Assembly (NCBI GenBank): GCA_038868075.1
Contig: JAWBXB010000002.1
Span: 73,769-137,768, forward strand
DNA: 64,000 nucleotides
Direction of reading: 5' to 3'
From: Candidatus Bathyarchaeia archaeon
GTDB lineage: Archaea > Thermoproteota > Bathyarchaeia > Bathyarchaeales > DTEX01
Position numbers and translations under genes: made by a program. The notes below the pieces were generated by a model, which had not been told where the DNA came from, did no database searches, and saw only the letters and a list, made by a program, of their open reading frames with translations. Below, piece by piece: positions 6,457-23,529 of this stretch. The stretch's first letter is position 1. Every line of letters starts with the position of its first letter.

Positions 6457-7041
6457 GTGAGAAAGGTGCTGGAGAAAGGACCTTATTCTATCAAAATAGC
6501 TGGAGTAGCGGGAATATATCCCTATAGGGTTAAAGTTGAGAGATATCTTAAGGATCTTCGAGATTATTTCCTCAATAAACAATTGGTTGAGAATATTCTT
6601 TCAAGGGGTGTAAACCCGCTAATCTACGTTGTTTATGAGGTAAACCGCAAAGCCGAAGGCGAATTTAATGTTGGATGCACAGTTATTTATCCGGGAAAAA
6701 TAGGTGACGAATACTATTTCACCAAGGGACATTTTCATGCTAAAGAGCCGACAAGCGAAGTTTATATTGGCATAAGTGGCGAGGGCGTGATCTTAATGCA
6801 GGATAGAAGTGGAAACACATTCGCTGAGAATATAGGTCCGGGAACAATTGTTTATATACCGCCTGGCTTCGCCCACCGCTCAGTGAATACCGGTAAGAGT
6901 GAACTTGTGTTCCTAGCAATTTATCCATCTGAAGCAGGGCATGATTATGAAACTATTATGAAAACTGGCTTCGCTAAACTAGTTGTTGAAAAAGATGGAA
7001 GACCAGTTTTAATTAATAACCCAAATTATAGGAGGATGTGA
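6457..7041 (+). CDS. pgiA: Cupin-type archaeal glucose-6-phosphate isomerase
   Basis: TVIYPGKIGDEYYFTKGHFH, EVY, YIPPGFAHRSVNTG, AGHDY. Confidence 0.9.
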   Translation: MRKVLEKGPYSIKIAGVAGIYPYRVKVERYLKDLRDYFLNKQLVENILSRGVNPLIYVVYEVNRKAEGEFNVGCTVIYPGKIGDEYYFTKGHFHAKEPTSEVYIGISGEGVILMQDRSGNTFAENIGPGTIVYIPPGFAHRSVNTGKSELVFLAIYPSEAGHDYETIMKTGFAKLVVEKDGRPVLINNPNYRRM

Positions 7042-12971: not shown

Positions 12972-13128
12972 TGGTGCGGGGGGTGGGATTCGAACCCACG
13001 AACCCCTTCGGGACGGGATACCCCATCCTTTTAGATCTTGAGTCTTACGCGCATATGGCGAAGGATAGCCATATACTCCGCGCATTAAGTCCAAATCTGC
13101 CTGTTTGACCTGGCTCTGCCACCCCCGC
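12972..13128 (-). tRNA. tRNA-Leu(CAA) with three introns (21/22: 13104-13086; 29/30: 13077-13045; 37/38: 13036-13020), CCA encoded
   Basis: Removing 19-, 33- and 17-nt introns gives GCGGGGG TG GCAGAGCCAGGTCAAATGC G CGGGA CT-CAA-GA TCCCG TCCCGAAGGGGTTC GTGGG TTCGAAT CCCAC CCCCCGC ACCA, with complete acceptor, D, anticodon, long variable and T arms. Each intron has a BHB motif. Confidence 0.92.
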
Positions 13129-20876: not shown

Positions 20877-22640
20877 ATGGATTACTCGTTAGTTACTGAA
20901 ACATACGAAAGGATTGAGAGTACAACTAAAAGACTTGAAATGACAGATTATCTAGTTGAATTCTTTAAAATGACGCCTAAGAATGTTATTGATAAAGTTG
21001 TTTATTTAACTCAGGGTAAACTGTATCCTGATTTTATGGGCATAGAGATCGGTGTGGCGGAGAAACTCGCAATAAAGGCTATTGCCAAGGCCTCTGGATG
21101 TAAGGAGAGTGAAATTGAGGAGGACTTAGCGAAGACCGGTGATTTAGGTGAGACAGCGCAGAGATTCCTTCAAAAGAGACGTCAGGTTTCCTTCTTTCAG
21201 AGACCATTAACTGTGGAGAGGGTTTATCAGACTCTTGACAAAATTGCGAGGGCTTCAGGTGATGGCTCAGTAGACTTGAAGATCAATCTTCTAGCCGGGC
21301 TCCTAACTGATGCATCTCCTAAGGATGCAAAATATATTATTAGGACGGTTACTGGCAAGCTCCGTCTTGGAATAGCCGATATGACTGTCCTTGATGCTTT
21401 GGCAATAGCTTACGGTGGAGGGAAGAATGCGAGAGAGATGATTGAGAGAGCCTACAATATATCTTCTGATCTGGGTAAAGTTGCGAAGGCTGTTGCTGAA
21501 GGTGGGATTGAAGCCATTAAAAACTTTAAAATATCGCTTGGCAATCCGATTAGACCTATGCTTGCTGAAAGGCTTAGTTCGCCCGCAGAGATACTTGAAA
21601 AATTGAGTGGAAAATGTATCGCTGAATATAAATATGATGGGGAGAGGATTCAAGCTCATAAAGATGGGGATAAAGTAATATTATTCTCTAGAAGGATGGA
21701 GAACATAACCAGTCAATATCCGGACGCCGTGGAACTTATTAAAGCACATGTTAAAGCTAAAGAAGCCATTATAGAGGCTGAGTGTGTTGCTGTGAACCTA
21801 GATAGTGGCGAGATGATGCCTTTCCAAGAGCTTATGCATAGAAGACGTAAGTATGATATTGCGAAAGCTGCAAGTGAATATCCAGTTTCACTCTTTGTGT
21901 TTGACGTATTATATGTGGATGGAAGGGATTTGACACTTGAGCCTTACCCTGTTAGGCACGAAGTTCTTGAGAGGATAATTGAGAGGAGCGATAGATTTCA
22001 GCTGGCGAAATATATGGTCGTTGATAACGCTGAGGATATGGAAAGATTTTTTGAGGAGGCGGTTGAAGCTGGATGTGAAGGTTTAGTTTGTAAATCGCTG
22101 AACAGTGATGCAATATATCAGGCTGGAGCTAGAGGTTGGCTCTGGATTAAGTATAAGCGGGATTATAAGAGCGAGATGACTGATACAGTTGACCTAGTGG
22201 TTGTGGGGGCATTCTACGGTAGAGGCAGAAGGGCTGGAACATATGGAGCGCTCCTCTTAGCAGCCTACAATCACGAAAACGATGTATTTGAAACTATATG
22301 TAAGTGTGGCTCAGGCTTCACGGATGAAGACCTACAAAACCTCCCAAAAATGCTCGAATCATACAAAATAGGACATAAGCATCCAAGAGTTAACTCAAAT
22401 CTAGAGGCAGACGTATGGTTCTTACCTAAAATGGTTATAGAGGTAATTGGCGCAGAGATAACTCTAAGCCCAATCCATACATGTGCAAAAGACCTAATAA
22501 GAAAAGGAAGCGGACTCGCAATAAGGTTCCCGAGGTTCACTGGAAGATATCGTACAGATAAATCAGCGGAAGACGCGACAAGGGTGGACGAGATAGTAGA
22601 AATGTATAGAAGACAACTGAAGAAAATAGAAACTGAATAA
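20877..22640 (+). CDS. lig: ATP-dependent DNA ligase (canonical crenarchaeal type)
   Basis: EYKYDGERIQAH, EGLVCK, YQAGARGWLWIKYKRDY, AIRFPRFTG. Confidence 0.96.
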   Translation: MDYSLVTETYERIESTTKRLEMTDYLVEFFKMTPKNVIDKVVYLTQGKLYPDFMGIEIGVAEKLAIKAIAKASGCKESEIEEDLAKTGDLGETAQRFLQKRRQVSFFQRPLTVERVYQTLDKIARASGDGSVDLKINLLAGLLTDASPKDAKYIIRTVTGKLRLGIADMTVLDALAIAYGGGKNAREMIERAYNISSDLGKVAKAVAEGGIEAIKNFKISLGNPIRPMLAERLSSPAEILEKLSGKCIAEYKYDGERIQAHKDGDKVILFSRRMENITSQYPDAVELIKAHVKAKEAIIEAECVAVNLDSGEMMPFQELMHRRRKYDIAKAASEYPVSLFVFDVLYVDGRDLTLEPYPVRHEVLERIIERSDRFQLAKYMVVDNAEDMERFFEEAVEAGCEGLVCKSLNSDAIYQAGARGWLWIKYKRDYKSEMTDTVDLVVVGAFYGRGRRAGTYGALLLAAYNHENDVFETICKCGSGFTDEDLQNLPKMLESYKIGHKHPRVNSNLEADVWFLPKMVIEVIGAEITLSPIHTCAKDLIRKGSGLAIRFPRFTGRYRTDKSAEDATRVDEIVEMYRRQLKKIETE

Positions 22641-22661: not shown

Positions 22662-22797
22662 GCCAAGCCGGGTCTAAGCCTTAAGTACTGTCCGGCCCGT
22701 TTAAGCAAAGTCTTTATCGCATGCCAGCCTTCAGCCGTTTCAGCTGGCATGCTCTTTGCTTAAACGCAGTACTTAAAGCCTACTTCCCGGCTTAGGC
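22662..22797 (-). ncRNA. Candidate rod-like structured ncRNA (unclassified)
   Basis: Four nested helices (8, 16, 13 and 10 bp). G-U pairs extend the helices only on the minus strand. CTTATATA plus a purine-rich BRE lies 24 nt upstream on the minus strand. Confidence 0.6.
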
Positions 22798-22820
22798 AAA
22801 AGCTATTTTATCATTAATTC

Positions 22821-22836
22821 TATATAAGACTTTTGC
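22821..22836 (-). promoter_or_regulatory. Putative BRE-TATA promoter for the candidate ncRNA
   Basis: The minus strand reads GCAAAAGT-CTTATATA, about 24 nt before the first G of the hairpin. Confidence 0.5.
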
Positions 22837-22875: not shown

Positions 22876-23529
22876 GTGGTGTTGGAGAAGTCTGTTGAGC
22901 GGTTTGAGGAAGATTTGGAGCTTATTGTTAATAGGCTTTGTAGTAGTGAGAGTGATAGGGTTTGTCAGCAGATTTTGAGGTTAAGAGATAAACTTATTCT
23001 TCTCTATAGGAGGAATGCTGTTAAAATCAATCATTCCATTATGGAGTTGATATGTGCTAAATATCTTATTTTATCTGGATACTATGTTGATTTAGAGTAT
23101 ACTTTAGATGGGATATCATGTGATATTTATGCATTAAAGGGGTTGGGTAGTTTAATAGTTGAGGTTGAGACAGGATATGTCCCGCCCGATCATGCTGTTG
23201 ATCCAATAACTTATTGTAAGGCTAGAGTAACAAGTAAAATAACTAGGTATAGTGTTTACGCTGAGAAGTTTGCCCTGGCAACTCCACCATACTATACATT
23301 ATGGTTTCCGCCAGCATTAATTAAGCCTCCGCGCTATCGGACAAGCAGCGAGATTAAGGAGATTAAATCTCTATGCGACTTATACTATAGTAATCCGCCA
23401 GTTAGTTTTGAAGAGATAAGGAACGCCCGGATACACGCAATATATATAATTGATGTTGATAACGGAGTGGTTAGAGAGACCGATCCAAACACCTATTTAG
23501 AGAGAACTCAACAATTTTGTGAGTGGTGA
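22876..23529 (+). CDS. Conserved hypothetical protein with a PD-(D/E)xK-like motif
   Basis: CDIYA...LIVEVETG resembles a restriction-endonuclease-fold active site; function unknown. Confidence 0.6.
   Translation: MVLEKSVERFEEDLELIVNRLCSSESDRVCQQILRLRDKLILLYRRNAVKINHSIMELICAKYLILSGYYVDLEYTLDGISCDIYALKGLGSLIVEVETGYVPPDHAVDPITYCKARVTSKITRYSVYAEKFALATPPYYTLWFPPALIKPPRYRTSSEIKEIKSLCDLYYSNPPVSFEEIRNARIHAIYIIDVDNGVVRETDPNTYLERTQQFCEW

Follow-up and report, generated by a model that had tools for sequence, protein, structure and literature searches.

A modular RNA family of Bathyarchaeia built around a covarying loop-bulge pseudoknot

Results

A hairpin with a promoter-like block between a DNA ligase gene and ORF217

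The window analysed here is a 64,000-nt stretch of contig JAWBXB010000002.1 from a Candidatus Bathyarchaeia archaeon. On its minus strand, positions 22662-22797 form a 136-nt hairpin with a 51-bp structure, which lies between the gene for an ATP-dependent DNA ligase (20877-22640, plus strand) and an uncharacterised reading frame of 217 aa, ORF217 (22876-23529, plus strand). The ligase stop codon precedes the hairpin by 22 nt. RNA and ligase gene are convergent in the home genus, the RNA running towards the ligase 3′ end; ORF217 is divergent from the RNA and about 80 nt away from it. The 1.58-Mb genome (97% complete) holds a single copy. The interval 22662-22836 delimited in the first-pass annotation also takes in the promoter, and we use 22662-22797 for the RNA proper. 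When compared with 200 dinucleotide shuffles of a 201-nt stretch, the minus strand folds with a minimum free energy of -83.6 kcal/mol versus -52.5 ± 3.9 for the shuffles (z = -8.0; 0/200 as good), and the plus strand folds more weakly (-69.6, z = -7.5).

Read 5′ to 3′ on the minus strand, the RNA opens with the 5′ strand of the closing stem (GCCUAAGCCGGG, nt 1-12, 22786-22797), which pairs with 22662-22672, and passes through the 5′ junction AAG (nt 13-15, 22783-22785) into the 5′ strands of helix S1 (UAGGCUUUAAGUACUG, nt 16-31, 22767-22782) and the 13-bp helix S2 (CGUUUAAGCAAAG, nt 32-44, 22754-22766). A single unpaired A (nt 45, 22753) precedes the 5′ strand of the 11-bp helix S3 (GCAUGCCAGCU, nt 46-56, 22742-22752), and the terminal loop GAAACGGCUGAA (nt 57-68, 22730-22741) follows, composed of NAAA, the tetramer CGGC (22737-22734) and KRAA. 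The returning strand carries the 3′ strand of S3 (GGCUGGCAUGC, nt 69-79, 22719-22729), paired with its 5′ strand, and an 8-nt bulge that faces the unpaired A (GAUAAAGA, nt 80-87, 22711-22718; consensus GNNNAAGA) and that we call the hinge bulge on geometric grounds. Next come the 3′ strand of S2 (CUUUGCUUAAACG, nt 88-100, 22698-22710), paired with its 5′ strand, the 7-nt bulge GGCCGGA (nt 101-107, 22691-22697), the 3′ strand of S1 (CAGUACUUAAGGCUUA, nt 108-123, 22675-22690), the 3′ junction GA (nt 124-125, 22673-22674) and the 3′ strand of the closing stem (CCCGGCUUGGC, nt 126-136, 22662-22672), likely the 3′ end region.

Upstream, a promoter-like block occupies 22820-22836 (minus strand), with a BRE-like GCAAAAG at 22836-22830 and a TATA-like TCTTATATAG at 22829-22820, the latter ~27 nt 5′ of the first paired base, 22797. 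This block (TTGTGCAAAAGnnTTATATA) is kept across the genus and in family-level homologues. Among 108 distinct loci, 47 have a TATA-like box at the fixed distance, 46-55 nt before the first module and ~25-30 nt before the closing stem; on the opposite strand, the corresponding position has one in 1 of the 108. The box is also found upstream of the Methanolinea and Thorarchaeota RNA genes described below, and a downstream T-tract shows no enrichment over the control strand in the same 108 loci. The first-pass annotation, which described four helices with G-U pairs, two bulges on the 3′ side and a BRE/TATA block upstream, was accurate on all of these elements.

Covariation supports the fold, the strand and a loop-bulge pseudoknot

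Two alignments underlie the comparative analysis: A1, with 24 full-length single-module RNAs, and A5, with 140 distinct modules from named genomes. In A1, 94.9% of the cells are paired and compensatory double changes occur in 36 of the 56 pairs, a result that none of 500 shuffles equals; when the register is slid, pairing drops to 25-51%. In A5, 39 of the 41 pairs are compensatory. Such changes are seen in 8 of 11 pairs of the closing stem (24 single-module RNAs), 10 of 13 pairs of S2 in A1 and 12 of 13 in A5, and 11 of 11 pairs of S3, and S1 contains covarying pairs as well. Covariation among homologues, which the first-pass annotation had named as a check on its candidate RNA, is present in these helices. 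Cells with G.U or U.G number 88 versus 20 with A.C or C.A, an asymmetry that identifies the minus strand as the RNA strand, as had been proposed and as the one-sided occurrence of the TATA-like box also indicates.

Several unpaired or junctional elements are conserved. The 5′ junction lies in a G-R-G-Y-A-N-G-C element, carried by the closing region and common to the Bathyarchaeia, Thorarchaeota and Methanolinea forms, and the 3′ side of the closing region carries AGGCUUAGAC in Bathyarchaeia and Thorarchaeota. The 3′ strand of S1 contains a conserved AGGCUUA, GGCUUAGAC is invariant among the Bathyarchaeia homologues, and the 3′ junction GA is invariant in A1. In a consensus of 143 modules, the unpaired A opposite the hinge bulge is conserved in at least 90% of modules, and G1, A5, A6 and A8 of the hinge bulge are highly conserved.

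The loop tetramer CGGC (22737-22734) is complementary to GCCG (22696-22693) in the 7-nt bulge, which gives a 4-bp pseudoknot. Among the 140 distinct modules, 557 of 560 cells are paired and all four pairs have compensatory double changes; the pseudoknot was absent from the covariance model used for the alignments. The central pair (A5 columns 57-109) is AU in 66 modules, GC in 65 and GU in 9, with no mismatch. Columns 56-110 hold CG 128, AU 8, GU 1 and other 3, columns 58-108 hold GC 133, GU 6 and AU 1, and columns 59-107 hold CG 133, UA 5 and UG 2. The loop and bulge tetramers change together, as CAGC/GCUG (67), CGGC/GCCG (40), AGGC/GCCU (8) and CGGU/ACCG (5), with rare single cases such as CGAC/GUCG; in a 44-module set the pairing also holds, there including UGGC/GCCA, CAAC/GUUG and AGAC/GUCU. 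Shifting the register by one column leaves 46% of cells paired and no compensatory changes. An unbiased MI-APC scan places the pseudoknot pairs within the top 21, all 21 of which belong to the proposed structure. A fifth pair (U.G) is unsupported, with 60 of 140 cells paired.

In multi-module RNAs with differing modules, the loop fits the bulge of its own module better than that of the neighbouring module in 60 of 64 informative comparisons, so the loop-bulge contact belongs to the module. Judged from the alignments, the pseudoknot is a covariation-supported contact whose pairing would fit cis or trans alike. We further observe that the central pseudoknot pair covaries with the loop-closing pair of S3 (A5 columns 57 and 67; nt 62 and nt 69 of the window RNA). 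The combinations are GG in 67 modules and AA in 50, with a G-C or A-U pseudoknot pair and a C-G or U-A closing pair of S3. This could reflect stacking or a base triple between pseudoknot and S3, or lineage correlation alone.

Comparative sequence evidence shows 22662-22797 (minus strand) to be a free-standing structured ncRNA gene with its own predicted archaeal promoter and a putative transcript of ~136 nt. That the locus is a real structured RNA gene with a pseudoknot we consider highly probable.

The closing stem encloses one to three modules

Across the family, between one and three modules of ~100 nt stand in tandem within the closing stem. The 108 distinct loci comprise 67 one-, 32 two- and 9 three-module forms, and the RNAs range in size from 136 to 330 nt, the window RNA being the shortest, one-module form. 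Each module runs in the order S1, S2 (13 bp), A, S3 (11 bp), 12-nt loop (NAAA-NNNN-KRAA) and S3′, and its 3′ half continues from S3′ through the 8-nt bulge (GNNNAAGA), S2′ and the 7-nt bulge (G-GCNG-RA) to S1′. Among 143 modules, S2 has 13 bp in 133 and S3 has 11 bp in 137, the bulge between them has 8 nt and the 5′ spacer of the loop 4 nt in all 143, the terminal loop has 12 nt in 121 and the pseudoknot bulge 7 nt in 136. The length of S1 varies between modules, from 4 to 15 nt.

These dimensions constrain how the pseudoknot can form. If S2 and S3 stack coaxially, the loop lies ~24 bp away from its bulge partner, which leaves either a fold-back at the 8-nt bulge or pairing between two antiparallel molecules. 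Since S2 and S3 have near-equal, almost invariant lengths and the 8-nt bulge is invariant, the module most likely folds back at the bulge; from this geometry we judge fold-back to be the probable arrangement and pairing between molecules the less probable one. In the folded-back form, S3 (11 bp) and the 4-nt spacer would lie alongside S2 (13 bp), with a postulated sharp bend at the 8-nt bulge. With the pseudoknot closing its distal end, the module would be a compact domain of two helices, not a rod.

This geometry changes how the bulges are to be read. The first-pass annotation had taken GGCCGGA (22697-22691) and GAUAAAGA (22718-22711) as periodic decoration of a rod. Both bulges, and the 13-bp helix between them, are in place, but one is the partner of a pseudoknot and the other a hinge of invariant length. 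Its suggestion of a rigid rod or nucleic-acid mimic is at odds with the strong covariation between the GGCCGGA bulge and the terminal loop; rather than being a simple rod, the long hairpin is most likely bent back on itself at the 8-nt bulge, the alternative being that it pairs with another copy of the RNA.

Distribution across Bathyarchaeia and beyond

All 22 genomes of the genus carry the RNA, with one copy each at the same site and 77-92% identity. Homologues are also present in most of the family's genomes and in part of the wider order, and a module-level covariance model finds the RNA in 128 of 301 genomes of this bathyarchaeial order, spread over six families. Among 401 genomes sampled across the phylum, all carriers belong to the class. 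Named carriers identified by a pattern scan include Bathyarchaeia B23, B26-1 and B26-2 and Ca. Bathyarchaeum tardum M17C-01, a cultivated archaeon with a complete genome. Outside Bathyarchaeia, the covariance model confirms the RNA in several independent Methanolinea/Methanoregulaceae MAGs and in one Thorarchaeota MAG. Of 81 Methanoregulaceae genomes sampled, 27 have the RNA, almost all of them with a single, three-module locus, which indicates stable inheritance there and not contamination. Pattern matches in bacteria (Patescibacteria, Clostridia and others) fail the covariance model and are attributed to chance, and viral contigs, phage records and plasmids gave no matches to the RNA.

Some carriers have more than one copy. 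Two one-module genes of Ca. Bathyarchaeum tardum (CP122380.1, ~729.9-740.3 kb; locus L069, 3450-3574 and 13661-13785) are 98% identical over exactly 125 nt, inverted and transcribed outwards, with unrelated flanks; with two further loci, the genome carries the RNA at ~275.5, 730.0, 740.2 and 1,993.9 kb. The pair brackets a 10-kb cell-surface glycan cluster (RmlA/B/C/D, UDP-GlcNAc 2-epimerase, an Ig-like surface protein and UbiA) and could reflect gene conversion or serve as a substrate for inversion. In the Asgard MAG Thorarchaeota OWC2 (L145, PRDH01000081.1), two one-module paralogues (2233-2327 and 6640-6734) lie 4.4 kb apart on the same strand. Together with the Methanolinea clade, the Thorarchaeota paralogues imply either that the RNA gene has moved from phylum to phylum or that it is very ancient. 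One MAG labelled Limnocylindrales has the RNA on one contig (L103, DATHCJ010000034.1; 72.6 bits) and ORF217 on another (309 bits), and probably contains mis-binned Bathyarchaeia contigs.

Genomic neighbourhood and ORF217

Clustering of 1,620 flanking ORFs from 131 distinct loci revealed neither a universal protein neighbour nor a consistently downstream gene. The neighbours met most often are the ligase gene, at 34 loci, and ORF217, at 32, which belong to one synteny block; the blocks of other lineages are quite different. The functions of the neighbours are mixed and include transporters, HypD/HypE, TrmO, FtsJ, DUF5591, an aminotransferase and a GDSL lipase. Among the distant loci (L178, L024, L152 and L123), RNA-modification genes recur beside the RNA in separate lineages, namely TrmO, FtsJ/RlmE and, in Methanolinea, DUF5591 and a 2-thiouracil desulfurase, but too sparsely to carry an interpretation.

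ORF217 represents a large family of Bathyarchaeia-specific hypothetical proteins with 1,729 relatives, which appears uncharacterised; Pfam and NCBIfam gave no match. Three acidic residues, D83, E96 and E98, do not vary. The structure predicted by AF2 (pLDDT 91) has a weak resemblance to PD-(D/E)xK nucleases (E about 5e-3, TM 0.3-0.5), with XisH, SfsA, FokI and the R2 endonuclease as structural matches. Within the order, ORF217 is present in 123 of 128 RNA-bearing genomes versus 52 of 173 without the RNA, raw counts that ignore phylogeny. The two genes are head-to-head in five families of the order. In most lineages they are far apart, and in most genomes of families f7 and f10 ORF217 is either on a different contig or at a distance of 23 kb to 1.2 Mb. 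All six RNA-bearing Methanolinea/Methanoregulaceae genomes and the Thorarchaeota carrier are without ORF217, and an obligate partnership is therefore rejected. ORF217 is thus a candidate partner, not an established one, within Bathyarchaeia only.

Relation to known RNA classes

The Rfam scan proposed in the first-pass annotation matched no family. The best Rfam 15 hit of the window RNA, ssnA, scores 13.4 bits (gathering threshold 37.3; E = 3.1) and is a chance match, and a gathering-threshold scan of the whole window gave no match at the locus. The two- and three-module homologues from Bathyarchaeia, Methanolinea and Thorarchaeota likewise have no Rfam 15 match at E <= 1, and literature searches by taxon, topic and sequence strings found no description of the RNA. 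Elsewhere in the window, at 12975-13128 (minus strand), Rfam gives a 154-nt tRNA match of 32.5 bits without a corresponding ARAGORN call; a tRNA gene interrupted by a long intron is the probable explanation.

Individual classes can be set aside on structural grounds. Archaeal SRP (7S) RNA has Alu and S domains and about 300 nt, and the canonical one is encoded elsewhere in this genome (contig 12, 170.7 bits). Box C/D sRNAs have box C (RUGAUGA) and box D (CUGA) near their ends; the upstream AAUGAUAA and downstream CUGA at this locus are not kept in homologues. Box H/ACA sRNAs combine a two-sided pseudouridylation pocket with a 3′ ACA box, whereas the bulges here are one-sided (1 versus 8 nt; 0 versus 7) and no conserved ACA stands 3′ of the hairpin. 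In a K-turn, a 3-nt bulge is followed by tandem sheared G.A/A.G pairs. The register that covariation fixes at the 8-nt bulge is incompatible with such tandem pairs, and with an L7Ae-binding K-turn there: the G of the candidate A.G pair instead forms a Watson-Crick pair with a C that hardly varies (GC 130/140), and the next pair covaries (AU 38, UA 35, CG 20 and others). A 6S-like promoter mimic is rejected on the lack of a two-sided bubble, the pseudoknotting of one bulge to the loop and the lack of a Rfam 6S match. A cis riboswitch does not agree with convergence on the ligase gene in the home genus, nor with the differing downstream genes elsewhere, which are often on the opposite strand. 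A type III toxin-antitoxin RNA (ToxI-like) is disfavoured by the lack of a conserved same-strand gene after the RNA and by the enclosure of the modules within a closing stem. The 8-nt GGCUUAGA, shared with the GTPase-centre loop of 23S rRNA, is probably a chance identity, several 8-mer matches being expected between a 136-nt RNA and ~4.5 kb of rRNA.

Some known RNAs resemble the family in part. Riboswitch aptamers such as SAM-I have a kinked hairpin whose terminal loop forms a short covarying pseudoknot (4 bp in the present family) in a compact fold; in the P2 K-turn and L2-J3/4 contact of SAM-I, as here, a helix with an asymmetric bulge lets its loop pair with a single strand near the helix base. 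In the present family, however, the hinge is not a K-turn, there is neither a four-way junction nor a Rfam match, the RNA is not upstream of regulated genes, and its modules stand in tandem inside a closing stem. OLE, ROOL, GOLLD and raiA are likewise widespread, strongly covarying, free-standing structured RNAs of orphan function, in which covariation between loop and junction may be quaternary and not tertiary, but they are ornate and bacterial, whereas the RNA described here is much smaller (136-330 nt), archaeal and modular with a variable number of copies and shares no sequence or model similarity with them in Rfam. In phi29-type pRNA, which is phage-encoded, a bulge loop and a hairpin loop have complementary, covarying 4-nt sequences and engage in intermolecular loop-loop pairing; the present RNA is chromosomal, without viral, phage or plasmid matches and without a Rfam match. 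CsrB/RsmZ, 6S and Y RNA are stand-alone, stable, trans-acting RNAs with repeated or defined protein-binding units whose variable number is tolerated. In contrast, the units here are archaeal, and each is a large, pseudoknotted folded domain rather than a short GGA hairpin or an open-promoter bubble. Within the knowledge and libraries compared, this is a new structured RNA family without a known relative, in agreement with the undescribed conserved RNA that had been suspected at the locus.

Discussion

If not an RNA gene, the hairpin could be an element acting in DNA or at an mRNA 3′ end, such as a ligase terminator or 3′-UTR hairpin, a palindrome used in recombination or replication, or a MITE. 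Such a reading could appeal to its position 22 nt past the ligase stop codon and to the plus strand, which also folds well (z = -7.5). We regard this reading as effectively refuted. A ligase terminator, intrinsic or archaeal, is inconsistent with the size of the element (136 nt, 51 bp), its location away from the ligase gene in most lineages, where it stands beside unrelated genes, and the opposite strand signal of the wobble pairs, and the first-pass annotation had rightly dismissed a terminator and the known RNA classes. A covarying pseudoknot and tandem modules within a closing stem would make no sense in a palindrome or terminator. Many genomic copies, which that annotation had named as the mark of a MITE, are not found: the element is single-copy and its site syntenic across the genus, and the lack of viral, phage or plasmid matches speaks against a dispersed repeat or mobile element in general.

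Concerning function, the modules are autonomous, their number varies from one to three by lineage, and the RNA stands alone, with a conserved TATA/BRE-like block upstream and no consistent downstream gene, which makes a scaffold or decoy acting in trans the most likely role. The purine-rich linkers of each module (NAAA, KRAA, GNNNAAGA and GG..RA) would form one putative protein-binding site, and the number of modules would set the valency of the scaffold or decoy. We give roughly even chances to the full explanation, in which the window RNA is the one-module member of a modular, pseudoknotted family acting as scaffold or decoy. Taken on its own, the multivalent protein scaffold or decoy is a tentative proposal that we hold with somewhat less than even confidence, by analogy with other orphan structured RNAs and from the variable module number.

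The main structural alternative is a self-assembling RNA, in which loop-bulge pairs would form between molecules. Antiparallel rods would each place their loop on the bulge of the other, 24 bp off, and multi-module RNAs would build larger RNA-only assemblies, networks or cages, as for OLE, ROOL and GOLLD. We consider this unlikely, though several observations are compatible with it: the covariation fits trans pairing equally well, a coaxial S2 and S3 stack without a bend keeps the loop ~24 bp from its partner, and the preference of the loop for its own type of module bulge would also suit homotypic pairing in trans. There is also precedent: in ROOL and GOLLD, covarying loop-junction pairs that had initially been taken for tertiary contacts were later found to link separate molecules (bioRxiv 10.1101/2024.12.08.627333). 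Against it, a dimer would constrain only the sum of the arms, whereas the 8-nt bulge keeps an invariant place between arms of 13 and 11 bp, and the invariant 4-nt spacers flanking the loop tetramer suit a closed intramolecular circuit.

The RNA might also be the partner or substrate of the PD-(D/E)xK-like ORF217, the two forming one unit expressed from a bidirectional promoter region that they share. In five families the genes keep their head-to-head order, ~80 nt from each other, and the protein is enriched in RNA-bearing genomes; both observations speak for such a unit, as do the high conservation of the protein, its invariant acidic residues and its predicted nuclease-like fold. Even so, we find it improbable: the co-occurrence counts ignore phylogeny, the structural matches are weak, in most genomes of f7 and f10 the gene is remote from the RNA, the protein occurs in 52 genomes with no RNA detected, and the six Methanolinea/Methanoregulaceae carriers and the Thorarchaeota carrier have the RNA without the protein. 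Quite improbable, in our estimate, is a ligand-sensing RNA whose module would be an aptamer for a small molecule or ion, acting in trans like riboswitch-containing sRNAs. The compact pseudoknotted module, its invariant linker nucleotides and the tandem arrangement, which recalls some riboswitch aptamers, are consistent with it. However, neighbourhoods offer neither a consistent same-strand downstream gene nor a shared metabolic theme, the RNA converges on the ligase 3′ end in the home genus, and tertiary packing alone can explain the conserved adenines.

To our knowledge, very few widespread structured RNAs are found in archaea besides rRNA, tRNA, RNase P, SRP RNA and guide sRNAs. The family described here is conserved across much of Bathyarchaeia, which are among the most abundant archaeal groups of sediments and soils, and it recurs in Methanolinea and Thorarchaeota. 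Its architecture is unusual in that an autonomous pseudoknot domain, likely a fold-back, is copied one to three times in a single closing stem. It is also tractable: the window RNA has only 136 nt and a testable pseudoknot, the three-module form, ~330 nt in Methanolinea, is big enough for cryo-EM, and one carrier, Ca. Bathyarchaeum tardum, is in culture. Should self-assembly prove true, archaea would have in this family their first counterpart to the RNA-only quaternary assemblies of OLE, ROOL and GOLLD, with protein-free antiparallel dimers of one-module RNAs, networks or cages of two- and three-module RNAs, and a valency tuned by module number. The family points to an undescribed archaeal RNP, sensor or RNA assembly.
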